From assembly GCA_963666285.1 (NCBI GenBank), contig OY762711.1: a stretch of 64,000 nucleotides of DNA; one strand, given 5' to 3'. Both the position numbers and the translations under genes were made by a program. Within the stretch, counting starts at the first letter, position 1. Each line of letters starts with the position of its first letter. Of the stretch, positions 1 to 16,846 are shown piece after piece. The DNA comes from Sedimentisphaerales bacterium (lineage in GTDB: Bacteria; Planctomycetota; Phycisphaerae; Sedimentisphaerales; SM23-30). A model generated the notes under the pieces. The model saw only the letters and a program-made list of their open reading frames with translations. It was not told where the DNA came from and did not search any database.

Positions 1-1
1 G

Positions 2-400
2 GGTAAAACAGGTAAAGTATTAGCCGTTTCTACCTTATGGACAATTACAAAAAAACTTTTAAAACAATACCTGAAAGACAAAAAAGATAAAAGCCCGTAT
101 GTATTTATTTCAAGACTTGGAATACCACATAGCCCCAAAGGTATAACTACTGCATTTGACAAGACTATTAGAAAAAACGCCAAAGTTTCAAAGGATGTTA
201 AGTTCAACCACCTACGAGACACATTTGCTACTTTGGCACAAGATGCAGGCTTTTCTATCGAACAAATCAACCTCGTGTTAGGACACAAAAACAAAGGAAT
301 GAACGACCGATACGCTGCTCGCCAAGCAAAACAACTAACAAGTAAAATATGCAATTCAGTAGAAGATGAGTTCTTTTCTTCAAACAAAATAAAAAAATAA
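2..400 (+). CDS. Tyrosine recombinase/integrase, C-terminal part (5' truncated by window)
   Basis: Frame 2 translates ...FNHLRDTFATLAQDAGFSIEQINLVLGHKNKGMNDRYAARQ...; HxxR, LGH and catalytic Y motifs; not in ORF track. Confidence 0.9.
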   Translation, partial: GKTGKVLAVSTLWTITKKLLKQYLKDKKDKSPYVFISRLGIPHSPKGITTAFDKTIRKNAKVSKDVKFNHLRDTFATLAQDAGFSIEQINLVLGHKNKGMNDRYAARQAKQLTSKICNSVEDEFFSSNKIKK

Positions 401-590
401 CCACTATATTTTAATTATTGAATAAATAATGCTGTAAGTAAAAGTCAGTTTGAGTCTGACGCAGAATTGACGCAGGGAATGACCTATATCGATTATTCTA
501 TTACTGGTGGCAGTGATGCTCCACGTAGTGGCATAAGTTGTTTCCTGTTGTTTGATAACTACAATGTAATTTATCAATATTAAATTAAAG

Positions 591-1151
591 TTACTTTATG
601 GCACATTCAATGATATAATTGGGAAAATCGTGAATTGCTTCATCTAACATCTCACCTAACTGAAATATTCTTTTCATTTTGTCGGAACTAAGTTCACTTA
701 ATTTAATTATTGAATATCTATTTAATATATTATTAGGGCTGCTATGAGAATATTCGACCAATATTCCACAATCAATATCAGTATTTGGCAAAGTAAATAA
801 TCTAACTTTACCGAAAGGTTTACTATTAAGTTTAACCTGATTTATACTCTCTTGTTTTGCCTTTGATGGTGCAGGTATTGTAACTTTTGTTCCTCCAGAT
901 TCAATACTATTACCAACTTCATAATTTGAATTAGCTGGGATGAACTTCGACTCAGAACCGCCAATAATCTCACAAAAGAATAGCCGATTTTCATAAAAAC
1001 CTAAATCGTTCAATTGCTTACCTACTTCATCTTCTTCCATTCCTTTTATCAAAACCAGTTGTTTTTTTTCATTGATTTCTAATCTACTATCATTGTCAGA
1101 CATGCAACCAGATATATTAATTAAAGCAAATAATAATATAAAGAATCTCAT
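591..1151 (-). CDS. Lipoprotein, candidate immunity protein for upstream RHS toxin
   Basis: Signal peptide with ISG-C lipobox; directly downstream of RHS-core gene. Confidence 0.55.
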   Translation of the reverse strand: MRFFILLFALINISGCMSDNDSRLEINEKKQLVLIKGMEEDEVGKQLNDLGFYENRLFFCEIIGGSESKFIPANSNYEVGNSIESGGTKVTIPAPSKAKQESINQVKLNSKPFGKVRLFTLPNTDIDCGILVEYSHSSPNNILNRYSIIKLSELSSDKMKRIFQLGEMLDEAIHDFPNYIIECAIK

Positions 1152-1179
1152 ATCGTCCTTTCATTATCATATTATGAAA

Positions 1180-2121
1180 TTAGTATTGTAAATAAGGTTT
1201 AGCATCACCCCAATCCTCATCTCCTACCCAATTTGGCGAACATTTTAAACCAAGATATTTACCATTATTATCATACATAAATTGACACCCCTCACCTTTA
1301 TTATTAATATAAAAATTGGGAGTATATGGGTGTTCACTATCTGAAAATACACCAGGACCAAACCCATGCCACGGGTCAAGCCTAAGAGAACATTCTCCCT
1401 CCGGCTCATTTATGCTTCCGACTGAAACGGTTACCCAGTTATGGATTACTGCAATTGGTTCATCAATTTGAGTTGTTCTTGAAGTCCCAGAACGGAGAGA
1501 TTTAAAGCAATTGAAATCTTTCTGTAGTGGAGCTAATGCATTATAAGTATGTGTTCTCCAGTGGTAACACATCCAACCACAATGGCTGTCACCATAAGTT
1601 TGTCCTGCCGTTGATGGTCCTGTTCCTTCAGGAACTTGTGAACGATAATACGAGTTCTCGTTTTCAGCCATTTGGTTCCACATAGCAACATAAGCCCGAG
1701 CTATCTGCATTGCCTCACTTTCACATTTTGGCTTTGTGCATCCTTCTCCGGCATTACATACACAGCTATCCTTACAAGCTGACTTTAATTTATTGTATAC
1801 ATTGCTTACTTGTGGGCTTATTTGTGGACCAATAAATTGTGGTTCATTTTGGGTAAAAGGATTATTCCACCAGCTATCAGGAATGATAGGATCTGGATTT
1901 GGAAAGACTGTAGGATTAGCATTCCCTGCAAATGATGTAAGTCCCATAGGGTCTGAATGTGAAATCGGATTTCCTTTAACATATTCATACATATTCATAC
2001 CATCAGCATATCCAATAGGGTCCTGCTGCTGAAATCTACCTGTTTTAGGGTTGTAAACACCAAATAGATAACTGTTTAAGATAACCGATATTAGAAAAAC
2101 TATAAGAATTGTATTTTTCAT
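1180..2121 (-). CDS. Short RHS repeat-associated core protein with signal peptide and Cys-rich C-terminal toxin-like tip
   Basis: YNPKTGRFQQQDPIGYADGMNMYEYVKGNPISHSDPMGL matches the RHS core end motif PxxxxDPxG. Confidence 0.85.
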   Translation of the reverse strand: MKNTILIVFLISVILNSYLFGVYNPKTGRFQQQDPIGYADGMNMYEYVKGNPISHSDPMGLTSFAGNANPTVFPNPDPIIPDSWWNNPFTQNEPQFIGPQISPQVSNVYNKLKSACKDSCVCNAGEGCTKPKCESEAMQIARAYVAMWNQMAENENSYYRSQVPEGTGPSTAGQTYGDSHCGWMCYHWRTHTYNALAPLQKDFNCFKSLRSGTSRTTQIDEPIAVIHNWVTVSVGSINEPEGECSLRLDPWHGFGPGVFSDSEHPYTPNFYINNKGEGCQFMYDNNGKYLGLKCSPNWVGDEDWGDAKPYLQY

Positions 2122-2150
2122 AACATACCTCTCAAAATCATAATGTATAA

Positions 2151-3131
2151 CTATTTTCGTAATTCTGGCTTGTATTTAAATATTTCTTCACGTGCAATAA
2201 CAAATATACATTTTTGTCTATTTAGAGTTGGCATTAGATTGTTGGCATAAGCAAACATTATTTGTGCTTCGTTTTTATTACCAGTATCCGCCAAAAGGTG
2301 TCCACGAGTCTCCAGGAACAAGGCTAATTCATCCTTGGGGGTTAGAGATTTCAAGTAATGATTATCTTTTATTTCTGCCTCAGATACTCTTGCTGGAAAT
2401 GATTTATAATAGCTATCAGGGTGACTATCACACCCACCTCGGCAACAAGCTTCAAAGTTGATAACTTCTTTTCCATCGTCCCAACGAAAGAATACGTGTT
2501 CTCTGGTAGTAACAAGTTTCAAAGGATAGCCAAGTCTTCGACCAACAGCCACGCAGGTTATTGGGATAGATACACAGCCACCTTCTTTTTTACCTGTTAG
2601 GCAACCGTGAATAAAGTGGTCCTTTGAGTCAAGAAAGTCTCGACTTTTCATTATGTCCAGATTGTAATTAACACCGATAGTATTCTTTAAGAATAATATC
2701 ATATTAACAATTTTATATAAAATGACTGAATTATCATACTTAGCCGAATATTGTGAGAAGTATGGAAGCCTTTTTTCCATATCAATTCTGGCTTGTTCTG
2801 CCCAATCATCAAGGATACTCATACATTGATCTATGTTAAGATTCTCTGAACCTTGCAGACCTTGAGCACAAATCAGATTAACTTTGGCTATGTCAATATT
2901 AGCCAATTGGTCTTCTGAGAGTAAAATAAGGTCAGAAACAGAAGATGGGTTCTTTATTGATGAATTATCTTCATTGGGCTGATTATCTGAAGCAATGGAA
3001 ATAGCATATAAAGCTGTTGCAAATCCAGCAGTTACGATAAAAGCTATCAATAATCTTGAAAATGTTTCCTTCTGACCAGCATTTTCAGTTGGATTTTCTT
3101 TTTGTTTATTTTTATTCCCAGTAGGTTTCAT
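2151..3131 (-). CDS. Transglutaminase-like (SirB1-type) membrane-anchored protein
   Basis: GGCVSIP...VGRRLGYPLKLVTTREHVFFRW motif (Cys/His), N-terminal TM helix. Confidence 0.7.
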   Translation of the reverse strand: MKPTGNKNKQKENPTENAGQKETFSRLLIAFIVTAGFATALYAISIASDNQPNEDNSSIKNPSSVSDLILLSEDQLANIDIAKVNLICAQGLQGSENLNIDQCMSILDDWAEQARIDMEKRLPYFSQYSAKYDNSVILYKIVNMILFLKNTIGVNYNLDIMKSRDFLDSKDHFIHGCLTGKKEGGCVSIPITCVAVGRRLGYPLKLVTTREHVFFRWDDGKEVINFEACCRGGCDSHPDSYYKSFPARVSEAEIKDNHYLKSLTPKDELALFLETRGHLLADTGNKNEAQIMFAYANNLMPTLNRQKCIFVIAREEIFKYKPELRK

Positions 3132-3906
3132 CTAAATACTATAAAAATCTCAATTACCTATGCTTATTATTGTATTTCAAAAAAACGCTATAAAAACAGG
3201 AAAATAAAAGAATTAGGAAAGGTTCTTTCCCTAATATTGCAATCCCTATTTTCATAAAGCAATACTAGTTTATCCCTATATAGATGTCAATATATTTCAC
3301 CACTTTTTTCAGGTAAAATCAGGATAATTTGCCTATTTTAGACAAAGCTTAACCTGTTCTGCTATTTTTATTATTTTCCAGTCTCCCAGTGGCCCAGTCG
3401 AACAAGTCGAAATTGAGCCTCTCTATTGTGGTTGGATACCTTATGCCTGATAAACAGGGTATGGGGTATAGGGGGAGCCAGAATAACTTTTTTCTAAGTC
3501 ACAATTATTTTATTTTTTTCAGTTTCAAAACTATCTTACTCAAGAAAAATCCATCGATACCTACCCAAATCAGAATAAATATTTTTCTGAAAATGATAAT
3601 AATAATATTTATTATTTTTCAAAACATAGATTTAAAGGTTTTTAAAGGTTTTAGAGCCAATATGCCCTTATATGGGCAATAACGGGCTTTTATGTCCTGA
3701 AAAATTATATCTGCCATATGTCTTGGGCAGTTATGCCCAAAATTGCCATAGTGAAATGGCATCTATGGCATATATTGCCACAGGGAAAACAGGTGCCCAA
3801 TCCAACCTATAGAGGATAAGGTCAGATTATGCCCATTATTGGGCTATAAATGAGGCTATTTATAATTGAATAGGTGCCCTGATGGACTGTAGTTGGAATA
3901 GGCACC

Positions 3907-4500
3907 TTAGGCAGATAGTTGCTTGGTCTGTTTCAGGGCAGTATAGACGGTCTGCCTGGAGCAATTCAAGTGACGGGCTATGCCACTGACTGACATACCT
4001 TGGCTCTTGAGGGATATAATCTCATCATAATTGTATTGTGGCACAGAGCCACCAAGTAGGACACCTTTTTGCCTTGCCCTTTGAAGACCACGGACGATGT
4101 TCTCCCTGATATTCTGCCGTTCCATTTCGGCAATACCTAATAAGAGGCTCATTATCATCCTGCCCACTGCCCCTGACAGGTCAAAGTTTTGGGCAATAGC
4201 AATGACCCTGATGTCCTGTTCGAGCCAATCGACCAACAGGTTGATACCGTCCTTGAGACTACGGGACAAACGGTCCAATTTCCATACGACTACAGTATCG
4301 ACCCTGCCCCTGAATATATCATTTTGAAGTTTTTTCAATGATGGACGGTCGAGATTACTACCTGTCTGCCTGTCTTCATAGACCTTGTAATTGGTTATGC
4401 CGTGGTTACGGCAATACTCAAGAATAGAAGCCTCCTGACTGTCCAAACCTGAACCTTGTTTTAGTGTGCTGACCCTGACATATATGGCTGTATATTTCAT
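3907..4500 (-). CDS. Serine recombinase (resolvase/invertase) with C-terminal HTH
   Basis: YVRVST, VVVWKLDRLSRS, C-terminal IARHLNCSRQTVY. Confidence 0.95.
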   Translation of the reverse strand: MKYTAIYVRVSTLKQGSGLDSQEASILEYCRNHGITNYKVYEDRQTGSNLDRPSLKKLQNDIFRGRVDTVVVWKLDRLSRSLKDGINLLVDWLEQDIRVIAIAQNFDLSGAVGRMIMSLLLGIAEMERQNIRENIVRGLQRARQKGVLLGGSVPQYNYDEIISLKSQGMSVSGIARHLNCSRQTVYTALKQTKQLSA

Positions 4501-4772
4501 TCAGTTGGCTCCTTCCTGCCTGATGACTCTATGCAATATTCTATGTGGCTCTGAATTATACTTGGCATCTGATACCAATTTATAACTTGTTCATTATTGA
4601 ATGAGCCTTGTTCAAAGTCGGCATCATCAATGCCGAAATACTGTCCCCAATGACTGAAACCATTTGGACAGTCAGGATTGCTACTCAATAATAAACAGGT
4701 TCCATCATAGAAATAAATGGTATATCTATCTTGAACATTATTTTTTGATTTGGTTATTGCTCTGATAATCAT
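4497..4772 (-). CDS. Hypothetical protein
   Basis: ORF overlapping the resolvase start by 4 nt, operon-like. Confidence 0.6.
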   Translation of the reverse strand: MIIRAITKSKNNVQDRYTIYFYDGTCLLLSSNPDCPNGFSHWGQYFGIDDADFEQGSFNNEQVINWYQMPSIIQSHIEYCIESSGRKEPTE

Positions 4773-4784
4773 TGATAATTCTTT

Positions 4785-5543
4785 CTAAAATGGTATTTCA
4801 TCATTATATATGTTGTTATTGTGTTCTTCTATCCTGATTGCCTTTTTGACAAGGCTTGTGGTCAGGTTATTTGTTTGTTCTGATTTGAGTATTGTCAGAC
4901 AGGTTTTAACTGTTTGAATGACACTCCTGATGCCTGTTTTATCTGAAATTATATGGCTTACTATGTTTTGCTTATATTCTATTCCGCAGAAATTTAAATA
5001 TTGCCTGACAACCTTGTCATAATAGTCTTGTGAGTGAGGCTTCAGGTAGATTGTATTATTAGTTGCTTTGGCAATTGGCTCTGATACGTGATTGATATGG
5101 TATGCTGTTAAAATTATTATACCATTGCAATGAATGATAGTTGGCTCTCTGCCCCTGAAGAAATGTGGGCAGGCTCCAAGGGACAGATACTTCCAAAGGT
5201 TTGCCTCACCAATCTTTTTGTTACGGTCCAAATCTTCGATGATGTGTGCCGTATATGGCATACTATAGTCAAAGAAATTAAACGATTGAGTCCCACATTC
5301 AAGGTGGTGATACTTACATATCCTGATGTCAGTTGAGTTGATGCTATTGGCAAAGCATTGAGCTACAAAATCTTTACCGGCGCCGATTAGTAGTAGGGAA
5401 GGCAACCTATCGGTAGAGCCATTGTTAATGGCATTGGCTATACTTTTAAGTTGCTCTATCCCTATACAATCAGTTTGTGGCAGAGTCCAAAGATTGCTAT
5501 GTGCCATATACAGGCTATGGTCTTTGTTTATTTGTTCTGCCAT
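4785..5543 (-). CDS. Degenerate AAA+/RuvB-like protein with acidic DEIPF C-terminal tail
   Basis: LPSLLLIGAGK resembles a shortened Walker A region; ends IYNDEIPF. Confidence 0.45.
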   Translation of the reverse strand: MAEQINKDHSLYMAHSNLWTLPQTDCIGIEQLKSIANAINNGSTDRLPSLLLIGAGKDFVAQCFANSINSTDIRICKYHHLECGTQSFNFFDYSMPYTAHIIEDLDRNKKIGEANLWKYLSLGACPHFFRGREPTIIHCNGIIILTAYHINHVSEPIAKATNNTIYLKPHSQDYYDKVVRQYLNFCGIEYKQNIVSHIISDKTGIRSVIQTVKTCLTILKSEQTNNLTTSLVKKAIRIEEHNNNIYNDEIPF

Positions 5544-5552
5544 ATAGACTTG

Positions 5553-5693
5553 TTAAACCTCAAAGGCTGCCGTGATTTTGGCATCAGGATGCCTCATCTT
5601 AATTATTTGCCGTGCCTTGTGTATGCTATCAGCACATACAACTTCCTGAAACGGCTTGCCATCTACAATATAATGCACTTCAAAACTTTTCAT
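5553..5693 (-). CDS. Small hypothetical protein (46 aa, MKSFEVHYIVDGKPFQEVVCADSIHKARQIIKMRHPDAKITAAFEV)
   Basis: Manually translated; GGAG RBS upstream; fills the gap between co-oriented island genes; below ORF-track cutoff. Confidence 0.6.
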   Translation of the reverse strand: MKSFEVHYIVDGKPFQEVVCADSIHKARQIIKMRHPDAKITAAFEV

Positions 5694-5713
5694 TTTAATT
5701 ACATCTCCAAAAA

Positions 5714-5911
5714 TTATGCTGTTAATTTTATAACTGAATTACCTTGGATCCTTGGCAACTTATACTCTTGATAATAGTTATATAAGGCTATGGCATATAA
5801 TGACTCTTGCTCTTGACTATTTAAATTCTTGGCAAGGTTGCCATTGAATATGGCATTATTATCTTTATTTATTTGTCTTTCATACCATTGAATTGTCTTT
5901 GTTTTCGCCAT
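5714..5911 (-). CDS. Hypothetical protein
   Basis: ORF with GAGG RBS in the island operon. Confidence 0.55.
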   Translation of the reverse strand: MAKTKTIQWYERQINKDNNAIFNGNLAKNLNSQEQESLYAIALYNYYQEYKLPRIQGNSVIKLTA

Positions 5912-6030
5912 TTTTGAGCCTCATTTTATTGTGTTTTTATCTTCGCCTGAAAAAATGTTCTACTCTGGTTAATAGCAATAAAAAAGACAGTTGACTAAAT
6001 GAAGAACTAACTGCCTCGGAGATGTATATG

Positions 6031-6552
6031 CTACTGATTAAAGACATTCAATATCTTTACCTTGGCACGATAATGCCGTTTTTTAACAGCATCTATTGAT
6101 ATGTTCAACTCTGTTGCTATTTCTTTGTAATTCATCCCTGACCGATGAGAAACAAACGCCATGTGTTCCTTGGATGTCAGATTTGCCTTCATAATAATTT
6201 CAACTACTTCAGCCATACAGATATCGAAGCAAAAATGTTTATCAGATTTTTCAGTCATTTCTTTTAAATAAACAGATTGTTTAATTTGACCATCTAACCA
6301 TTCACTTAGAATATCTTTCAACTTGTTGTTGAGCACTTTGTATGAGTAGGATTGTGGGTATTCGACCTTCTTACCTTGCTTGAAATTACGTTCAACTACA
6401 GACAGAAACCTGACCTTCAGTTCAGACTTTATATCATTTTTATCTGTATCTGTTAAATAATATTTTTGGATACTGTCATAAAACTGATTTGATATGAAAC
6501 TCTTGTAATAACCATAATACTTTAAATATTCCCACTTCAATTTATCACTCAA
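6031..6552 (-). CDS. ECF-type sigma factor-like protein (sigma-70 region 4)
   Basis: GMNYKEIATELNISIDAVKKRHYRAK region-4 HTH. Confidence 0.75.
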   Translation of the reverse strand: MSDKLKWEYLKYYGYYKSFISNQFYDSIQKYYLTDTDKNDIKSELKVRFLSVVERNFKQGKKVEYPQSYSYKVLNNKLKDILSEWLDGQIKQSVYLKEMTEKSDKHFCFDICMAEVVEIIMKANLTSKEHMAFVSHRSGMNYKEIATELNISIDAVKKRHYRAKVKILNVFNQ

Positions 6553-7548
6553 TTTACATCAACTCCACACCTGAAATCTGTTGCTATTCAGGTTCCATAC
6601 TAACCATTGTTACAGTGTAAGTATAACAAAATGTTTTTCACTTTTCAACGAAAATCGCCTATTTTAACATTTTCGGGAAAGATAATACCTGTGACCTGTG
6701 GATCCTGTCAAGCCTTGTTAGGCTAATTGAAATGAATTATCATTGTATATAAACATTGAAAGAAAAAATAAAAGATAAGGTATGCTATCGCCGCTGTCGA
6801 AGACAGTGGGGGTCAATTTTCGATTTGCTTTAGCAAATTGAAAGTTGCAGTTAAGTCAGTAGCCTTGTTATCTACCTATTTTCATTTTTTCACAGAAGAA
6901 GAATATTAGGTATGTCAGTTATTCCTGTTATACCTGTAAAGTCTAAATGGCAGGCATTTAGACCACACCACACTTCGTGTCGTGTGTTATTTTTATTGTT
7001 TTTTTAATCTTTTCAGGTTTTCAGTCCCTAAGGTTCCTTAGTAACTATCAATAGTTATTATATATAGACCCCAAAAGGGTCAAAATCGGGACATATAATT
7101 TTAATTATTTCTGAAAAATATTTGATTGTTGATAGTGATGGGCAAGTGTGGCAGAATGCCACACAGCCCTTGGTCTCTTATAGGGACAGGTTTAAATTCT
7201 CTTCATATTGAGCCAGGACTGTCTGTATCCCCAGAGGGCGCATAGCACCTGTAAAAGAAATAGGATTATCCGGGAGCAATCTCGTGGCTCCGGTGGTAAG
7301 TTGAAAGATAGAGCCAACACTTGCAATGTAAAATTGCTTTACATCACCTACAATAATAAGGCTCAACATAGTAAAAAGCCTCATAAACTTTCCTTGTATA
7401 AAGAAGATAGATAGGCTATCATTATTGAAATAATAAATGCAATGTCTATGAGGATAATTGATTAAAAACATTAGCACATTCACATAGCACATTGCCAAAT
7501 ATTGAAAATATAACTTTTTATTTAATAAATAGTTATAAAATGTCGGAT

Positions 7549-7576
7549 TGGGTTCGATTCCCATTCGCCTCCGCCA
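7549..7576 (+). tRNA. selC: 3' fragment of tRNA-Sec (att site duplication; not an intact tRNA)
   Basis: TGGG-TTCGATT-CCCATTCGCCTCC-GCCA: 13 nt between T-loop and G73, i.e. 8/5 acceptor/T arm of bacterial tRNA-Sec; no tRNA 5' half upstream. Confidence 0.8.
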
Positions 7577-7605
7577 TTTTTTAATTTGGAAACCGTAAAT
7601 AAAAA

Positions 7606-7869
7606 ATGAACAAGAAATTAAGACAAATAATAACTTCAATCCTGCTTGTTATTGGTCTGGCATTGCTGGTATATGGACAATTTGTAAAATCCTATACCGT
7701 TCTTAGTAAAGAAGGCGATGCGACTTCTGCCGATCCTGAAACAATGATAGTCAAGGATGTCACCATCCATGGTGTTGACCGTAACGCGGAAGGCGAGTTA
7801 TTTAGAACTTACTCGACTAAGGAAGGAGCAGCTCCGCCCCCGGATGACTGCCCTACCTGAGGCAGCTAA
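7606..7869 (+). CDS. Membrane-anchored small protein, predicted selenoprotein with C-terminal CPT-U-GS (CxxU)
   Basis: N-terminal TM helix; TGA 7858-7860 follows CPT and is followed by GGC AGC TAA; SECIS-like fold at 7864-7893. Confidence 0.65.
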
Positions 7870-7893
7870 CAGGAGGCTGTGGTGTCCATGGCT
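7864..7893 (+). promoter_or_regulatory. Candidate SECIS element for TGA 7858
   Basis: AGCTA-aca-GGA-g-GC-[TGTG]-GT-g-TCC-a-TGGCT fold; loop begins 17 nt after UGA with G in second position. Confidence 0.45.
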
Positions 7894-8709
7894 AAAGAAA
7901 GCAAGCTACACAACTTTGCTCTAAAACTTATCCCTCACCGACTTTGGGTCCAAACAGCATTTCTGCTGGTCTGGCTCGACCCGCTGGCATTGCGTATGCA
8001 CACAGCCTGTGCACCTGTGTTCCATTGTTATGCATGTCCGCTGGCAACTTTTGCCTGCCCGGTTGGCGTTATTGCACAATTTACCGCATTACACCTTTTC
8101 CCTTTCCTTGCTATAGGTCTGATACTTAGCCTGGGCGCCTTGCTCGGCTCGATTATCTGCGGATGGATGTGCCCGTTTGGTTTACTGCAGGATCTGGCGG
8201 CAAAAATTCCAATACCACGTTTCAAAATCCCGCAATGGATGGGCTATGGTCGATATATCGTATTGCTGGGTACAGTCATTCTTATCCCTTATATATGGGG
8301 AAGCGAACATAGTCTTTTTATATGTAGAGTATGCCCAATCGGAGCAATAGAAGGTGCAGGTCCTGATATTGTAACAGCTGCTGCAAATGGTTCAGAAATT
8401 GTATGGCCAAACGCCTTAAAGATGACAATTACAATCGTAGTAGTAGTCGCCATGTTTGTTTCGATAAGGCCCTGGTGCCGCGTATTATGCCCGTTGGGAG
8501 CAATATTTGGATTTATGAATCGATTCTCACTGTTCTCAATGAACCTGAAAGAGTCAAACTGCACTCAATGCGGCCACTGTCATACACTATGCACCTACGG
8601 TGTTGAGCCGGAAAAAGACTCCAACAGCGACAATTGCATACGATGTCTGGAATGTACCAAATGCAAGCCGGGAGCTCTTCAATCAGGTCACATTTTTGAG
8701 AAAGAATAG
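7879..8709 (+). CDS. Membrane 4Fe-4S binding protein (NapH/MauN/RdxA-like polyferredoxin)
   Basis: CYACPLATFACP, CGWMCPFG, CRVLCPLG, CTQCGHCHTLC, CIRCLEC motifs with TM helices. Confidence 0.9.
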   Translation: MVSMAKESKLHNFALKLIPHRLWVQTAFLLVWLDPLALRMHTACAPVFHCYACPLATFACPVGVIAQFTALHLFPFLAIGLILSLGALLGSIICGWMCPFGLLQDLAAKIPIPRFKIPQWMGYGRYIVLLGTVILIPYIWGSEHSLFICRVCPIGAIEGAGPDIVTAAANGSEIVWPNALKMTITIVVVVAMFVSIRPWCRVLCPLGAIFGFMNRFSLFSMNLKESNCTQCGHCHTLCTYGVEPEKDSNSDNCIRCLECTKCKPGALQSGHIFEKE

Positions 8710-8714
8710 ATCTC

Positions 8715-9848
8715 TTACCCTGTTGATTCTTCTGAGATTTGACTAATTGTGTCTAATACTGCTTCAGAATTGAGATTATCAGAATATCTAAACAATTCCA
8801 TGAACCTACAGTTCCAGAACTTGTTATTTATCAAAAATATCACAAACGGCAAACATAAAACAAAACAGGCAAAACCAAATATTAGTGCCATAAGCAATAC
8901 CTGCCAGATATAATCATCAATTTGCTGACTATTAGCCATTGCCTGTATAACAAATGCGGAAACGACAAATATTCCGGAAATTAAAATCATATTAACAAAT
9001 GTCAAGATGACGAACTTTATTGGCCTGAAACGCCTGCGACACATCCACCTGGTAACTATTATTCCCGACAAAACAACTCCGAATGCAATTAAGTAGACAA
9101 TAAATAGCTCTGCTTCCATGTCCCCGAAGCTCATTATTTCAAGTACGCCGAATGCGATAAATATAATAACAGTCAGGATAAAAACCAAAAAGCGATGCAC
9201 TTTTGCCAGCTTCTCAGACAATAGCCAACAGAAAACAAAACTGATAACTGTTGAGTTAACAATAATGTCAAAATATGTTCCAGATTGGCCAAGAGATACT
9301 ATTTTCAGGTATATCCACCATATCGCCAGCGCTATAACCATTGGCATAAGCAGCCATAAAGCTTTTCCTGTACGGTTTTCCTTGAGCAATATAAATCCAA
9401 CTGCAATAATCAACCACTTTACCATCCCAAGCAAAGCACTAAACGGACTGATATACACCTCAACCGGCCGGCCTTTAACTGGTCCCCAATCACCAATATT
9501 GTTACTTACCACAATTTGAATATTACCAAAAACATACCCAGGTATTCGCCACGAATACGAACTTAAGCCTCCTCAACCATACTCAAATTTACCGGTACCT
9601 AATTTTAAATTCCCTTTATATATTTCAAACGTTGGCTTCTGCCCTCTTTCAAACAGCCCTGAATTTTCATGAGCTTTTCCTAAGGTATCAAGAAGTTTAT
9701 ATTCCAGGGTAATATAACAGCCATTAATTCCAACCTCAACTGTATTATCCAAAGGCTTGCCAGGACTATCATCCGCAAGTAAACCAAAATTGATAGAAGA
9801 AATAAACAGAATAATAAATATAAATATTTTTTTCATAATCAAACACAC
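8715..9848 (-). CDS. Predicted selenoprotein: exported EYG-U-GG domain fused to a multi-TM domain (joins ORFs 9573..9848 and 8715..9512)
   Basis: TGA 9575-9573 is followed by 20 open codons GGLSSYSWRIPGYVFGNIQI in frame with the downstream ORF; SECIS hairpin 9542-9558; likely ATG start at 9836. Confidence 0.8.
9542..9558 (-). promoter_or_regulatory. SECIS upper stem-loop
   Basis: GTATTCG-[TGG]-CGAATAC perfect 7-bp stem starting 14 nt after UGA. Confidence 0.75.
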
Positions 9849-9858
9849 ATAAATTAAT

Positions 9859-11184
9859 TTATTTCAATTGATCTTCCAACTCGTCAATCGTAAAACCTTC
9901 TGCAGTAACCTTCAATTCAGAATCTGCTAATATCAGCCATGGTAAGCCTTTCAAACCAAGTTTGAATTTAGCATCATCCAGCTCTTTATTCAAAATGCAA
10001 GATTCAAATGGAACAGAATTATCTGATAACCATTTATCAATTTCCTCCTGGTCAATTTGTCCGTTATGTACCAGCACAGTATGAATACCCTTTGTTTCAA
10101 GTATTTCTTTTTTACCTGCCAGCTGTTTAATAAAATAACGGCTTGGTCTCTGTTGTATATCCCAGAAAAAGAGCAAAACAGGCTTGCCTGCTTCCAGGTT
10201 GGTTATGCCGTATTTAGTCATATCAGGCAAATTCTTACCGAGCAAAGAAGAAGGCTGTCTAGGCACAAAGCCTCCGTAAGACGGTTGTTCACTAACTACA
10301 AGAACAACATCCTCGGCACCACCTTCAGTTTCTATGTGGTTGTATAAATGCCTGCCATTACTTTGATAGTTAGCCTGAATATTCGCCCTGCCTGAACAAA
10401 CAGCTTCAAAAGTAAATTTCCCTTCTTCATCTGTTTGTTTGCCTTCATTTGGCTGGCCGCTGCCGTAGAGATAAACATTAACATTAGATATGCCTTTTCC
10501 ATCTTCGTCAACAACCTGACCGGATATTTTCATATCAGCAATACGTAAAATAGTATTATCCAGCTGAATAACCCTGCCTATTATACCTGGATCTGCCTCA
10601 CAGCTTATGTTGCCTGAACCATATCCTTTGACACTACTAATATTAATACTGTACCTATGAGATTCCGGTAAACATGATACAGCAAACTCACCGTTGGCAT
10701 CTGATTTGATTTTTGACTCGGTACGTTCAAAGCTGCACCCCCAACTATTGGACATAAGTGACAATGAAACTCTCGCACCTTCAAGTGGTTCGCTTTTTTC
10801 GTTAACAACTTTACCTTTTACAGAAAATCCTTTTGCCAGTGTGATGTCTGCAACTTTACTATCTACTGTAATTGAAGTTGAACCTGCCAGATTGTTACCA
10901 ATATCTCTGGCAATAACATACATCTCATCTTGCACCCAGCTATAATTACTGGGCTTCCAGTTTATTATATATTTACCATCTGCATCCGTTGTCACACTTC
11001 CCGGCACATAATAGTTCGGCATAAGATAAACAGCTGCTCCTTCAACCGGGCTGCCATCGGCATCTCTAACTATTCCAATTAGTTGAGAAGGAGCATTACG
11101 CTGCATTTCTCTGACCATTGGAGTCGCCTGATCAGCCAGTTCCATCCCTAACGACGATAACAAGATTAAAAATAACCTTAACAT
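9859..11184 (-). CDS. Secreted protein with carboxypeptidase regulatory-like (beta-sandwich) repeats and a C-terminal redoxin-like domain lacking CxxC
   Basis: Repeated GxVxDxxGxPVEGAxV units; GKPVLLFFWDIQQRPSR and GLPWLIL thioredoxin-fold pattern. Confidence 0.75.
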   Translation of the reverse strand: MLRLFLILLSSLGMELADQATPMVREMQRNAPSQLIGIVRDADGSPVEGAAVYLMPNYYVPGSVTTDADGKYIINWKPSNYSWVQDEMYVIARDIGNNLAGSTSITVDSKVADITLAKGFSVKGKVVNEKSEPLEGARVSLSLMSNSWGCSFERTESKIKSDANGEFAVSCLPESHRYSINISSVKGYGSGNISCEADPGIIGRVIQLDNTILRIADMKISGQVVDEDGKGISNVNVYLYGSGQPNEGKQTDEEGKFTFEAVCSGRANIQANYQSNGRHLYNHIETEGGAEDVVLVVSEQPSYGGFVPRQPSSLLGKNLPDMTKYGITNLEAGKPVLLFFWDIQQRPSRYFIKQLAGKKEILETKGIHTVLVHNGQIDQEEIDKWLSDNSVPFESCILNKELDDAKFKLGLKGLPWLILADSELKVTAEGFTIDELEDQLK

Positions 11185-11205
11185 AATAAATCCTTATCTT
11201 AAAAT

Positions 11206-11231
11206 AGCCCGGATCAATAATAATCCGGGCT
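11206..11231 (-). terminator. Intergenic hairpin (terminator or stabiliser)
   Basis: AGCCCGGAT...ATCCGGGCT 9-bp inverted repeat with A/T flanks. Confidence 0.55.
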
Positions 11232-11245
11232 TTATTAGAATGATT

Positions 11246-14140
11246 TTATTTCTTTTTACGTGTTGAAGAAACAACCGCAACAACAACCATAACTACAAAT
11301 ATAACTATTACAGCACTCAAGTTGAACTTCCTCTCCTGCCCGGCTTCGGGTTGAGATTCTGACTGTTCAGCCTGAATCGCTTCTTCGGCGGCCTCTTCGG
11401 CTACTTCTTGCACAGATTCGCCTTCTTCAACAAAACTTACATTCTCCAGCTTAACTTCATCCTGTTCAGCTGCGACAATCTTATTTTCCTTGAAAAGCGA
11501 TTCAACTTGTTCGGCACTTAAGGCATAGCCAAAAATATAAGCTTCATCGATAAGTCCCTTAAAGTTCCTCATTGTACGGCTATGATCAATTTTACCAAGA
11601 ACGAAATGTACCGGATCATCAAATTGCTTTTCGACATTATTAACAAAGCCTGCCAGCTGGCCATCAATATACAGATAATTACAACTACCGGAATTAACTA
11701 TAACTATATGGTGCCAGTTATTATCTGTATAGATTCCATTACCATTAATTGAATTACCACCTTCGTTACCAAAAGGTTTTCTATGAAGATATCTAATCCG
11801 ATCTTTGTAGATTTCCAGCAAAATACCGTGATTACCATGGCCGGTTGCTGCAACTATATCCATCGCTTCATCTGTACCACCATTCTTAATCCATACAGAA
11901 ATCGAATAATCTTTCGATATAGTTAACGGATCAGTAATATCAACATAATCATCCTTACCATCAAGCTGCAACGCTCCGCCAAACCGGCCTTTACCAGGAA
12001 GCCATTCAGGCTCCCCATTAAGAGTTCCATTAAACGAATTATTTTGATCTAACGCTACCGAACCACTCACTTCATCAAGAGACCAATGAGCAAGCTGGTC
12101 GCCTTTCGTCTCAAATGACCATACCGGGCCAACTGTTGTTTTTCCGGATTGGCTTACTTCATCAACACACCAGAAATAGATGGCATTAGGAATAAGTCCG
12201 CTGAAAGTCAGTTCAGGTTTCCCTTTAATGCTGCCTAGCAGCTCCATATTCTGTTTTGTATTGCCAAAATATATTTTATGTATAACTGAATCTTCACCTG
12301 CAGTCCATAATACCTTCATTTTTCGCTGAGAAGCGACATTTGCCCCATCCCAAGGCTCCGGATTACAGGCATTTGCCCCAAGCTCTTTATAAAATCGAAC
12401 TTCACTAATCCCTATTTGACCACTCTTATGCCAACTGGATGGATTATCAAAACGAACTTTTTGAGCGTCTACTGGATCTAACTTAACTACAACGGGCGAA
12501 TCATAATCGAAAGTACCCTCAGCCTTGTCAAATACAATATCCTGCTTAACAGATTTCCAACCTTCTTTTTCAGTCCACACGGAAACATCAGCCTTTGCAA
12601 TACCATAATCGACATAACCTGGCTTATTATAATTCCAGACGACTATAGAAGTAAGTTTCTGTGGTTCAGTAAAATCAAAAACAATACCTTCACTATATCT
12701 TTCGACATTTGACAGCCACATAGCTTCAGTGTCAGTATTATGCTCTATCAGATTATCTTGATCTACATCCAGAAGACCGCTGCCATCAATTACAGCATTC
12801 ATCCCTTTAGCTACAACGCCGGTAACCATCTCGCCATATACAGTTCTTTTACGGTTTTCAGGTTTTAATGTATAAATTTTTCCCCTTATATCAAAAGGAG
12901 AATCAATAACAGCTTCAGCAATAAATGGTCGTGCAACATTCTTAGGCTCTCGCCACGAGAGCGAACAAGTGCCACCTCAACCATATTCCAGACTAAAAGT
13001 CTGGTCATAGGTCCGATCCCTGTTGTATATCCTGACCTTTGGAGCATCAGGTCTGCTGCCCGATTTTGTCAAGCTTACAGACTCTCCATTATTACCTGAT
13101 AATTGGTGTCTGAAGTAATAACTACCATTTCCATAACTCACCGATAGGTTTGAAAATACATTTTCGCCTACATTCGATTTGGCAACAGCTCCCCGGCTAA
13201 TCTCAAATTCGTTGCTATTGGAATACCAGGTGGCTCCCATCTCCCAGTTTTTACCGGAATCATCTTTTGCTGTTTTCTGCCAGGAACGAACTCGATATTT
13301 ACCAACAGGTAAACTGATTTGGCCATCTTTTATATTGTCTCGTTTGAACAAACCATTCTGGCCGCAGCATACGATTGAATCGACATTAACCGGTACTTCC
13401 AGCTTACTGTATGCAACGTCATCTGCCGAAGTCAATTCGACAAATGCTCCGTCTTTTGAAACTTGCAGGTTATATAGTTTATTTTCATATTCAATATAAT
13501 TACCAACAAAAGTTTCATGCTTGGTTATGACATCACCTATAATTATTCTGTCACTGTCAAATGTTTCAGAAATATCATTAAATGTGCCATTCAGATTATA
13601 GTCAACTAGCGTAATTTTTGTTTTAACACCAGCTATATCAACAGTCCCTTCATACCAGCACCCAATCTGGGCATACAAACGCTCGTAATCTGCTCTGTAG
13701 GAATAATAATAAAAATTAATATGATATGTAACGATCCCATCATCTGTATCAAACAGCACAGGAATTCCGTTGAAGTTTACACGGTATTCATCTCTACGCT
13801 CACCCTGATATTTTTCATTTTCAGAAATAGAGCCGTCCCCATTAGAATCAAAATACATTAGATCGTATTTGCCATATTTCTTCTGACGATCCAGTATTAT
13901 CTGCCTTGATTTCTTCCCGGCCATCTCATGCTTCCAAACGGCATACCTTACATCATCTGTATTTAGTTTTGGTACTGTCATTTCTGACGGTTTTTCCTTT
14001 GAAAGCTCGATATTTTTTGTGTTCCCACCTATGATTTCTCTGGCCGTATCGGAACTGCAATATCGCAACCATTGAGGTGCAGAAAAAACTGTCGCAGTAA
14101 TTGAAAAAATAACCAATAAAAATAATGCCTTGATTTTCAC
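11246..14140 (-). CDS. Predicted 964-aa selenoprotein: signal peptide, EYG-U-GGTC domain, discoidin-like, LamG domains, C-terminal TM anchor (joins ORFs 12977..14140 and 11246..12829)
   Basis: TGA 12979-12977 is followed by 49 open codons GGTCSLSWREPKNV...YGE into the downstream ORF; SECIS hairpin 12946-12962; LamG motifs (GGALQLDGKDDYV, WHHIV, FKGLIDE). Confidence 0.82.
12946..12962 (-). promoter_or_regulatory. SECIS upper stem-loop
   Basis: GCTCTCG-[TGG]-CGAGAGC perfect 7-bp stem starting 14 nt after UGA; covaries with 9542-9558. Confidence 0.78.
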
Positions 14141-14700: not shown

Positions 14701-15081
14701 ATGAAAAACGATGCTAATCAAAACGTATCAGAAACTGAATTGACAATATTAAATGTATTATGGAACAGTCAGGAAGCCAGTATCAGAGATATAACTCATA
14801 ATATCTACGGCAACACTGATACCAGCAACTATAATACGGTTCAAAGCCTGATCAATCGACTGGAAAATAAGGGTTTTGTAGGCCGGGATAGAAGTGGTTT
14901 CGCCCATAAGTTCTTTGCACAAATAAAAAGGCAGGACTTTATTAACCGCCAGCTAACCGAAATAGCAGACAAAGTATGCGGAGGATCCTTTATGCCGCTT
15001 TTAACCAATCTTGTTAATAAAGCAGAGTTTACTGAAGACCAAAGAAACCAGCTTAAAAGGCTGATTGATCAAATAGACTAA
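14701..15081 (+). CDS. BlaI/MecI/CopY family transcriptional repressor
   Basis: SETELTILNVLW...TVQSLINRLENKGFV...CGGSFMPLL. Confidence 0.92.
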   Translation: MKNDANQNVSETELTILNVLWNSQEASIRDITHNIYGNTDTSNYNTVQSLINRLENKGFVGRDRSGFAHKFFAQIKRQDFINRQLTEIADKVCGGSFMPLLTNLVNKAEFTEDQRNQLKRLIDQID

Positions 15082-15106
15082 AATAACTCGCATTGAGAAC
15101 AATACA

Positions 15107-16846
15107 ATGGAAACTTTATTATATACGGCATTATCAAACACAATAATAGTAGCGATTATCGTATTATCAAATCTACTACTAACTCGAGTAATTAAAAATA
15201 AGCAGATTTTAGCAATACTATGGCTGGTTGCATTGGCCAAACTGTTAACCCCAGCCCTTTTCAACCTTCCAATAATCACCCTGCCAATAAACCAGGCTAA
15301 TGACCAGATACAGTTCAATATAGCATCAATACAACCAACTGACTTCGATAATGACAAATTGAATACGGGGTACAAAACCTCTATAACGCCATTAATGTTA
15401 GAAAAAACTCCACTGGATGATGCGATTAAACTTGATTGGCACACTATTCTCATTTCAATCTGGCTTGGAGGAGGTATTATTTTTATCTCATACAATTGTT
15501 ATAAAATATTTAATACTATTAACCTATTAAGAAAAGCTAACAAGCCGCCTCATTTCATTAAACAGGAGGCAGAAAAAATCGCTGACACACTTGGCCTGAA
15601 ATCTGCACCAAGGATTTTAATGTTAAACAAGCCTATTTCACCTTGCGTATGGGGACTCGGCAAAAAACCGACAATTATACTACCTACAGGCTTCTTCTTT
15701 AGCCTCTCTCGCAAGGATCAGGATTTAATATTAACTCATGAGATGGCACATATCAAACGCTATGATCATTTAATAAGATTCATCGAGTTTTTGGCATTAT
15801 CAATATACTGGTGGAATCCAATTGCCTGGTTGATATGTTTTAATGTCAGACAAAGCTCAGAAATTTGCTGTGATAACTATGTATTAAAATTATTTCCTCA
15901 GCAAGCCAAAACTTACGCGCGGGTTTTGGTACAGACAGTGGAATATATAGCTAATCGGCCGGTCTTTGCCTTTAGCAGCGGACTGACCAGGGAACCTTTT
16001 ATAAACAGGAGAATTAAAATGCTCAATAAAAATCAAACGGATAGATATTCAATAGCATCCTTATTATTTATTTTTGCTCTCGTTCTTACTCTGCCATTTT
16101 CTGTTTCAATAGCCACAGCCGAAGACACAAATATTGATGAGCTTAAAGAAAAAGTACTAAATTCACTGGAAGGCCAGGATGAAAAAGTACTGCAATCGAT
16201 AGAAATGGCATTTAATGAATACCAGAAAGAAGCAGTACAGGAAATACCCAATAATACAGATGCCGATAAAAGCCAACCAGACAATGAACAGCCTAAAGAG
16301 ACTGGAACAAAAGAACTTACTAAATCACTCTATAAGTCTATTAAAAAGCGGCTAATGTCTGGAAAAGATATTAATAATGGTAGTAACGAAACAAAAAATG
16401 ATGCAGCTGACAGCAAAAATGTCCAAACATTCAAAATCGGAAATTCTACAATTACTATAGCAACTGATTCTGATTGGTTAAATATAGCACAGCACCACAT
16501 CAATCAAATAGACAAAAGTAAATTGGAAAATCTAAAAAATGAAATAAATGAAAAACTGCAAAATAACTTCAAAAAGCTTAACAAGGAAATGGCTAATTTA
16601 ATAGATATTGACTTTGACGAGATAAGATTTAACTCGGAAAAGCAAAGAGAAATCTTAGAAAATGCTATAAAGTTAAAAGAACTTATTACCAGCGGAAATC
16701 TCAAAGAAAAAATATTCCAGGAAAAAGATGAAGTTATCACAGAACTTCATACAAAAATGGCTGATCTGGAAGAAAAGTACCAGCAACTTAAAAACGACCT
16801 GTATGGCCTCGACCAAAATATAAATAAGAAAATAGAGAAAGAATAA
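15107..16846 (+). CDS. M56 family (BlaR1-like) metallopeptidase sensor with coiled-coil C-terminus
   Basis: HEMAHIKRYD, YWWNPIAW, SEICCD; adjacent to BlaI. Confidence 0.92.
   Translation: METLLYTALSNTIIVAIIVLSNLLLTRVIKNKQILAILWLVALAKLLTPALFNLPIITLPINQANDQIQFNIASIQPTDFDNDKLNTGYKTSITPLMLEKTPLDDAIKLDWHTILISIWLGGGIIFISYNCYKIFNTINLLRKANKPPHFIKQEAEKIADTLGLKSAPRILMLNKPISPCVWGLGKKPTIILPTGFFFSLSRKDQDLILTHEMAHIKRYDHLIRFIEFLALSIYWWNPIAWLICFNVRQSSEICCDNYVLKLFPQQAKTYARVLVQTVEYIANRPVFAFSSGLTREPFINRRIKMLNKNQTDRYSIASLLFIFALVLTLPFSVSIATAEDTNIDELKEKVLNSLEGQDEKVLQSIEMAFNEYQKEAVQEIPNNTDADKSQPDNEQPKETGTKELTKSLYKSIKKRLMSGKDINNGSNETKNDAADSKNVQTFKIGNSTITIATDSDWLNIAQHHINQIDKSKLENLKNEINEKLQNNFKKLNKEMANLIDIDFDEIRFNSEKQREILENAIKLKELITSGNLKEKIFQEKDEVITELHTKMADLEEKYQQLKNDLYGLDQNINKKIEKE

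Follow-up and report, generated by a model that had tools for sequence, protein, structure and literature searches.

Two genes interrupted by in-frame TGA

A 64,000-nucleotide stretch of contig OY762711.1 from a Sedimentisphaerales bacterium (the window) carries on its minus strand two genes, each split into two listed open reading frames (ORFs) by a TGA codon (Table 1). An earlier reading of the DNA made without database searches (the sequence-only reading) proposed that both genes end in EYG-TGA, continue in frame and encode paralogous selenoproteins with a shared domain of about 100 aa. Both the arrangement and the shared domain are confirmed here. In gene 1, EYG and the TGA at 12979-12977 are followed by GGTCSLSWR, and in gene 2, EYG and the TGA at 9575-9573 by GGLSSYSWR. 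With TGA read as selenocysteine (Sec, U), the ORFs 14140-12977 and 12829-11246, separated by 49 open codons between the TGA and the next listed start, become one 964-aa product, and 9848-9573 and 9512-8715, separated by 20 such codons, become one 377-aa product; neither contains a further stop. Both TGAs lie inside a single domain of ~110 aa with the motif [YF]G-U-GG-x-C-x-[YF]-S-W-R, which we call Sec-Ig. The domains of the two genes align across the TGA (E 8e-7, 43% over 40 aa); homology extends past this codon and completes one fold. The stretch has zero differing letters in 3/3 public sequencing runs, all from a single study whose reads may themselves have produced the assembly. Together with the analyses below, the sequences indicate that both genes almost certainly encode selenoproteins, in which UGA is recoded through a standard bacterial selenocysteine insertion sequence (bSECIS) hairpin and Sec is placed in a ~110-aa exported or membrane-anchored Ig/macroglobulin-like beta-sandwich.

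Table 1. Features of the selenoprotein locus, in window coordinates
Feature	Position	Strand	Remarks
Selenoprotein 1, 964 aa (predicted)	11246..14140	-	Signal peptide, ~300-aa beta-rich family region, Sec-Ig domain (U388), F5/8-type and LamG-3 domains, C-terminal membrane anchor
In-frame TGA as Sec (U388), gene 1	12977..12979	-	
Sec-Ig beta-sandwich domain, gene 1	12851..13162	-	Model residues 307-410
bSECIS hairpin, gene 1	12946..12962	-	7 bp, UGG loop, UGA-to-loop 21 nt
Selenoprotein 2, 377 aa (predicted)	8715..9848	-	Signal peptide, Sec-Ig domain (U-GGL-S), about six predicted membrane helices
Alternative starts of selenoprotein 2	9848; 9836	-	GTG 9848 gives the 377-aa product; ATG 9836 is the start of the database fragment
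In-frame TGA as Sec, gene 2	9573..9575	-	
bSECIS hairpin, gene 2	9542..9558	-	
Exported protein with carboxypeptidase-regulatory-like repeats	9859..11184	-	C-terminal thioredoxin-like domain without CxxC; recurrent selenoprotein neighbour
NapH/Fer4_5-type membrane polyferredoxin	7879..8709	+	Recurrent neighbour, 9/72 loci
Candidate selenoprotein CPTU, 87 aa	7606..7869	+	N-terminal membrane helix, C-terminal C-P-T-U-G-S; TGA 7858-7860, hairpin ~7875-7893
32-bp direct repeat of the tRNA-Sec 3' end	7549..7580	+	Right end of an element integrated in selC

A uniform hairpin follows the TGA

In both window copies a 7-bp stem with a UGG loop begins 14 nt after the TGA, the loop lying 21 nt from the UGA, and the two stems differ at three pairs changed on both sides, as the sequence-only reading had described. 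This geometry, including the early G that it had pointed out in the apical loop (here at the second loop position), agrees with the bSECIS model in the available part of PMC13188914. Rfam assigned the hairpins to no family. The copy-1 hairpin has an energy of -9.4 kcal/mol over 17 nt and -11.9 over 42 nt, and that of copy 2 has -4.9 (17 nt), -7.2 (42 nt) and -9.5 (57 nt), with a reference cut-off of -7.5. A scan of the whole genome for such a hairpin after any TGA gave 24 matches among 248,289 TGA triplets, which comprise seven family copies, one frameshifted relic and 16 that fail an open-frame filter.

The larger set consists of 214 profile (hidden Markov model, HMM) matches in the fetched loci, 202 with TGA and the remainder with sense codons. 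All six stem pairs are formed in 183/202 TGA copies versus 0/12 non-TGA homologues, and among in-register copies the six-pair hairpin is observed in 180/193, where random synonymous recoding yields an expectation of 10.4. Furthermore, in 55 copies chosen without use of the DNA pattern, 89% of cells pair (25-55% in slid controls), and two-sided changes occur at all 7 pairs, which bears out the covariation suspected from the two window copies; RNAalifold recovers the identical stem. The stem imposes codon pairs on the protein, namely TAC/GTA (Tyr/Val), CTC/GAG (Leu/Glu), TAT/ATA (Tyr/Ile) and TTC/GAA (Phe/Glu), whereas the Pro codon that follows, whose third base is no longer part of the stem, varies freely at that base.

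Selenocysteine machinery and family copies in the genome

The genes selA, selB and selD, whose presence the sequence-only reading had named as a check, all score over curated cut-offs in this genome, selD being present twice, and tRNA-Sec (selC) is found as well. One set of all four genes lies 1-10 kb before the window, with selC at 1.1 kb and selA at 7-8 kb. The closest SelA/SelB matches suggest that the host is probably a Sedimentisphaerales-like planctomycete. In the SelD of the island (L016:11147-12778, +), the catalytic site holds Cys, the N-terminus is extended by a Cys-rich segment and the C-terminus carries a CMD/AhpD domain; the second SelD, encoded elsewhere (C1:1953363), has an in-frame TGA inside.

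A search of the genome with the domain profile found seven intact copies, 7/7 with TGA and the same hairpin geometry. One of them ends 25 bp before selA, and 4/7 sit away from the selenium island. Four N-termini carry lipoprotein-like signals (by eye), two carry signal peptides and one a membrane helix; all seven copies look exported. The proposal of a modular exported Sec domain, grafted onto LamG and polytopic membrane proteins, is supported, none of the refuting outcomes named in that reading having occurred, with three refinements. The domain stands, but not as a pair, as there are seven copies in the genome and about 200 in the fetched loci. The LamG and membrane tails are present in genes 1 and 2 but optional in the family, the common unit being a ~300-aa N-terminal region plus the Sec domain. 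Finally, both the U-GGT-C and U-GGL-S variants exist, but Ser at U+4 in copy 2 is the exception (Cys in 191/202 TGA copies). A frameshifted relic of the motif with an intact hairpin lies at C1:379222 (+) of the genome (G000), just before a methyltransferase and double-cubane cluster; other genomes have an intact copy at the corresponding place.

Distribution of the Sec-Ig family

We sampled 401 genomes drawn evenly from the phylum; these genomes are related and the counts are therefore not independent trials. The refined profile matched in 54/401 genomes (41 with the first profile). Of its 113 matches, 99 contain one TGA and none TAA or TAG. A DNA pattern with the Sec codon left open, run against GTDB, gave 134 distinct matches among those listed, in at least 129 stretches: 131/134 have TGA and none has TAA or TAG, the codons that would have spoken for an ordinary stop at this position. 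The three non-TGA pattern matches are in loci without a domain match. Pattern matches L106, L108 and L112 (no domain match) were left out, as were four duplicate loci before the 72-locus counts given below.

Consistent with recoding, selA is present in 49/50 genomes with a TGA copy versus 288/401 overall. Only four genomes have non-TGA copies alone; three of these have no selA match, and two of the three carry Cys. Among the first 80 loci, those with a named host come from metagenome-assembled genomes of Planctomycetota (Phycisphaerae, Sedimentisphaerales, Pirellulales), Verrucomicrobiota and Kiritimatiellia, together with Sumerlaeota/BRC1, Hydrogenedentota, Riflebacteria and Acidobacteriota, and a genome may contain up to 9 paralogues. 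Among homologues in protein databases, 43/48 end at YG/FG, and they are unnamed or hypothetical; a search for longer, read-through database proteins returned one Glu-form protein, which is weak evidence.

Homologues were expected to align the UGA either with Cys or with a conserved UGA, and both were seen: TGA prevails, and Cys forms occur in L034, L035 and P0134, the last being the Cys orthologue of gene 1. In 36 non-Sec homologues that keep [YF]G, the position is held by Cys (8), Gly (8), Arg (6), Leu (4), Trp (3) or Ser (3), among others. Since the codon is one base change from TGA in 32/36 of them, Cys forms included, the codons suggest that Sec is the ancestral state.

Predicted fold and protein architecture

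AlphaFold2 modeling of the domain (148 sequences, TGA as Cys) gave an all-beta sandwich with a predicted local distance difference test (pLDDT) score of 92 and U at a hairpin tip. In a model of the first 410 mature residues of gene 1 (pLDDT 94), the same domain occupies residues 307-410 and U lies in a five-residue loop. The models thus predict an Ig/macroglobulin-like beta-sandwich whose glycine-rich hairpin loop holds Sec. Scanning the domain against Pfam and NCBIfam gave no curated match, a sequence search against solved structures gave no meaningful match, and the ESM Atlas, queried with a natural Cys homologue, returned unnamed clusters only, under 0.9. The domain alignment shows no extra conserved His, Met or Cys ligand.

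Most members have a common ~300-aa beta-rich N-terminal region with DxNxxG-type motifs before the Sec domain, so that the unit is often a ~430-aa protein; >330 aa precede the Sec domain in 90/151 Sec ORFs. For this N-terminal region, which the fold search barely probed, a single row was obtained, to TPP II (Z 6.8). Downstream, 108/151 Sec ORFs end within ~60 aa of U, and in 43/151 a long C-terminal part depends on read-through. In the Cys-form homologues P0025 and P0036, a Pfam match marks a fused thioredoxin-fold domain that has Cys-rich motifs, and similar Cys-type fusions occur in P0042, P0054, P0083 and P0091; the unusual C-x-C-x-x-C motif of these fusions is absent in P0091.

Comparison with known selenoproteins and folds

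Sec-Ig shares with other bacterial selenoproteins, as treated in the available part of PMC13188914, the in-frame UGA, SelA/B/C/D, a hairpin at 21 nt from the UGA whose second loop base is G, and Cys homologues. It differs in motif and fold (U-x3-C and a beta-sandwich, against UxxC/CxxU and a thioredoxin fold), in its up to 9 exported paralogues per genome, and in a stem built from codon pairs that covary as amino acids. It therefore falls outside the thioredoxin-fold selenoproteins: the model is all-beta and contains neither UxxC nor CxxU.

The closest functional precedent, by analogy, would be MccSep, in which a G-U loop from an Ig-like domain attacks polysulfide or selenite and whose Cys variant loses most activity (available part of bioRxiv 10.1101/2025.11.18.688581). 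As described there, this periplasmic multihaem selenoenzyme (MccSep/ExtKL, NF040886) likewise has its Sec in a G-U loop that projects from an Ig-like beta-sandwich at the C-terminus, and Cys is a poor substitute in MccSep as Cys forms are rare in Sec-Ig. MccSep, however, has five CxxCH motifs, whereas none occurs in Sec-Ig ORFs (0/161) and NF040886 has no match at the domain loci; its motif is DG-U-P instead of YG-U-GG-x-C, and its partner sits on haem instead of being a Cys in the same loop. The Ig-fold thiol-disulfide oxidoreductase nDsbD, which relays disulfides to thioredoxin folds (available part of PMC3137068), resembles Sec-Ig in its broadly Ig-like fold, its two nearby chalcogen residues and its thioredoxin-fold partners (fused to Cys forms in Sec-Ig). 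It differs in its C103-C109 spacing, against i,i+4 and Sec in Sec-Ig; moreover, no solved structure is detectably similar to Sec-Ig in sequence, a DsbD membrane domain was not identified, and nDsbD is not among the fold-search matches listed for either model. Macroglobulin MG2/MG1 domains (PF01835) match 22/148 members weakly (best E 4.9e-4), and E. coli alpha-2-macroglobulin superposes with Z 8.4 and a root-mean-square deviation of 2.2 over 78 residues, but MG domains are structural and have no Sec loop; Sec-Ig proteins are not macroglobulins. OS_HP2/DUF1573 ('UGC') and deep-Sep ('DG', GUxG) also have short Gly-flanked Sec motifs, but their HMMs, NF041425 and NF049953, do not match the domain copies. 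SoxY, with the motif GGCGG, shares the Gly-rich context around a reactive residue. Its Cys is on a swinging arm (available part of PMC11237559), whereas in Sec-Ig the U lies in a hairpin inside the domain, which continues for another ~40 aa.

The sequence-only reading recognized no classical selenoprotein family here, and comparison with current HMM collections agrees: across 148 members no model of NCBIfam (June 2026) fits (best E 0.013 overall, 0.034 to OS_HP2), targeted tests of NF049953, NF041425 and NF040886 gave no match at domain loci, and none of the 119 prokaryotic selenoprotein families in Table 1 of PMC13188914 (2026) has the Sec-Ig motif. We found no description of the family in the literature covered, which excludes most subscription journals, so prior mention is possible, and the families of Haft and Tolstoy (2025) were compared through the review table and NCBIfam only. 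For these reasons we state that Sec-Ig is a real selenoprotein family with standard bacterial recoding that is apparently undescribed.

Genomic neighbourhood and a second candidate family

Neighbours were counted in 72 distinct loci with a stored flank of at most 5 kb. At least one of selA, selB and selD lies within 5 kb in 22/72 loci. Recurrent neighbours include a double-cubane reductase cluster (12/72), an S-adenosylmethionine (SAM) methyltransferase (12/72), the NapH-like ferredoxin (9/72), an outer-membrane barrel-like gene (7/72), a NitT/TauT-type ATP-binding cassette (ABC) system distantly like SaoX, and MtaA/CmuA methyltransferases. Two outer-membrane barrel-like families (L053:2384-3427, L183:10637-11527 and homologues) recur between Sec-Ig and the methyltransferase/ABC genes, one without a Pfam or NCBIfam match and the other with a weak match to PF13557. 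The window trio of selenoprotein 1, the carboxypeptidase-repeat/thioredoxin-like protein and selenoprotein 2 recurs in six loci (L194, L052, L064, L067, L101, L124), in varying order. We discounted translational coupling to selA, because the two genes point in divergent directions in most loci that show both selA and the domain gene.

The CPTU gene, named after the C-terminal motif of its product, is present in 13 TGA copies (fetched loci and window), most with a hairpin 20-25 nt downstream, and its proteins have 1-3 residues after U. It lies directly upstream of the NapH-like ferredoxin gene in the window and in several other loci. CPTU has no NCBIfam match and occurs in 9/401 sampled genomes, 8/9 of which also hold Sec-Ig; it is a candidate for a second new selenoprotein family.

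The window genes are parted from selD-selC by an element of ~8.7 kb with 35% GC and an integrase, inserted in selC. Since the element splits the region here, while selC directly precedes the CPTU gene in L183, L121 and L071, gene order indicates that the window genes are part of one selenium island. The element covers window positions 1-7580 (G000 C1:4446890-4455580) and encodes tyrosine-recombinase-like integrase and RHS-like ORFs, labelled from motifs by eye. A BlaI-type repressor and BlaR1/M56 pair at 14701-16846 (+) is divergent from the selenoprotein operon, which it could regulate.

Possible function

We propose that the recoded, exported Sec-Ig domain is an extracytoplasmic U-x3-C redox module that is re-reduced from the membrane, and assign this statement as a whole a probability of roughly 0.5. 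The selenolate in the glycine-flanked hairpin loop would attack an S-S, S-Se or Se-O bond, for example in a protein disulfide, a polysulfide or a selenium oxyanion, and the Cys at U+4 would resolve the adduct as a selenenylsulfide. Re-reduction would come from the membrane, plausibly via the neighbouring NapH-like polyferredoxin and the small CPTU protein, and the paralogues would place the same warhead on varied anchors, such as a lipoprotein, a single helix, a polytopic membrane domain or a LamG stalk. This proposal is based on the prevalence of Cys at U+4, the fusion of Cys forms to a thioredoxin fold, the NapH-like neighbour and the co-occurrence with CPTU.

Several observations weigh against it or against the recoding that underlies it. 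Window copy 2 has Ser in place of the resolving Cys, and its hairpin is weak alone, the 42-nt minimum-energy fold (-7.2 kcal/mol) being a different structure. One genome, G063 (90% complete, 410 contigs), has TGA copies but no selA match, and because the sampled genomes are related, the counts overstate independence. Only 8/36 non-Sec homologues have Cys, with G, R, L, W and S as common, so the fold persists without a chalcogen. The CxxC of the thioredoxin-like neighbour is absent in 6/6 homologues with a fully visible domain, and the CxxCH haem motif of MccSep has no counterpart in Sec-Ig. The matches from fold searches were generic ones to Ig, fibronectin-III and macroglobulin domains (best Z 8.6 and 8.4), and Foldseek found no match at E<=0.001 for either model. 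In P0078 and P0107, a BlaR1 M56 protein and a Ser/Thr kinase carry a Sec-less form of the domain, which suggests reuse of the domain as an extracytoplasmic sensor. Finally, the linkage to sel genes suits a role in selenium supply equally well.

Such a role, in which the Gly-flanked Sec would covalently bind selenium or sulfane sulfur outside the cytoplasmic membrane, as a SoxY-like carrier does, and pass it to the co-encoded outer-membrane barrel and ABC importer feeding SelD, seems rather unlikely. The frequent proximity to selA, selB or selD, the genome copy just before selA, and the SaoX-like ABC, barrel, double-cubane, SAM methyltransferase and MtaA/CmuA neighbours all fit it, as do the SoxZ-type chains among weak Foldseek rows and the tracking of SelD by double-cubane proteins reported in the available part of bioRxiv 10.1101/2022.07.06.499078. 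Yet it would be costly to build Sec into up to 9 paralogues in order to obtain selenium, selenoprotein genes often cluster together regardless (available part of PMC13188914), most of the genome copies are away from the island, and the motif is internal rather than on a terminal swinging arm. Less probable still is binding or transfer of a metal or metalloid (Hg, As, Cu or an organometallic), in which U and C(+4) would act as soft ligands, along the lines put forward for the SAO system. The conserved U...C pair on an exported Ig-like fold would serve this purpose, CopC is among the weak Foldseek rows, and an ArsM-like methyltransferase (weak NCBIfam matches), corrinoid methyltransferases and double-cubane enzymes are neighbours here as near SAO loci (same preprint, available part); however, the domain alignment offers no further conserved ligand, the 40 most frequent neighbour clusters include no efflux pump or MerB-like cluster, and thiol chemistry is indicated by the fusion of Cys forms to a thioredoxin fold.

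The mixed residues of the non-Sec homologues, mostly one base from TGA, and the long C-terminal parts gated by read-through could also be accommodated by a selenium-dependent translational switch, in which read-through decides on completion of the domain and on the C-terminal anchor or membrane part and Sec chemistry is secondary. We regard this as improbable: since most Sec ORFs end soon after U, only the domain itself would be gated in them, and Cys(+4) and the flanking glycines are conserved as an active site would be. That the TGA marks a genuine stop, arose as a sequencing artefact or has been reassigned to Trp or Gly is hardly credible. The weak copy-2 hairpin and sequencing support from one study can be cited in its favour, but TGA exclusivity, hairpin covariation and co-occurrence with selA oppose it, and a stop would cut a single fold in two. 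As for reassignment, TGA terminates 449/2,572 open frames of >=300 codons in the genome, and the sole TCA-anticodon tRNA is tRNA-Sec.

Beyond the redox module itself, we tentatively suggest, as a possibility we consider doubtful, that it belongs to the transmembrane selenol relay of an undescribed selenium island in anaerobic bacteria of the Planctomycetota–Verrucomicrobiota–Chlamydiota group. The island would include at least two new families (Sec-Ig and CPTU), with electrons perhaps passing from the NapH-like ferredoxin to CPTU and on to surface Sec-Ig domains; these would reduce or capture extracellular Se or S species and feed outer-membrane channels, an ABC importer, double-cubane reductases and methyltransferases.

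Implications

Sec-Ig adds a new combination of motif and fold to the prokaryotic selenoproteome. In a limited sample, about 200 genes are mis-annotated as two hypothetical ORFs each, and the family reveals heavy use of Sec at the cell surface in Planctomycetota and other phyla, none of which is named in the available part of a 2026 selenoprotein database paper. Its SECIS, unusually uniform, imposes amino-acid changes in pairs and makes the family a clean test case for SelB recognition. The selenol relay, if true, would give the SelD-linked double-cubane enzymes a pathway, and Sec-Ig would then rank with the most expanded selenoprotein domains of bacteria. The neighbouring genes offer a testable handle on selenium acquisition by anaerobes and on the role of double-cubane enzymes.

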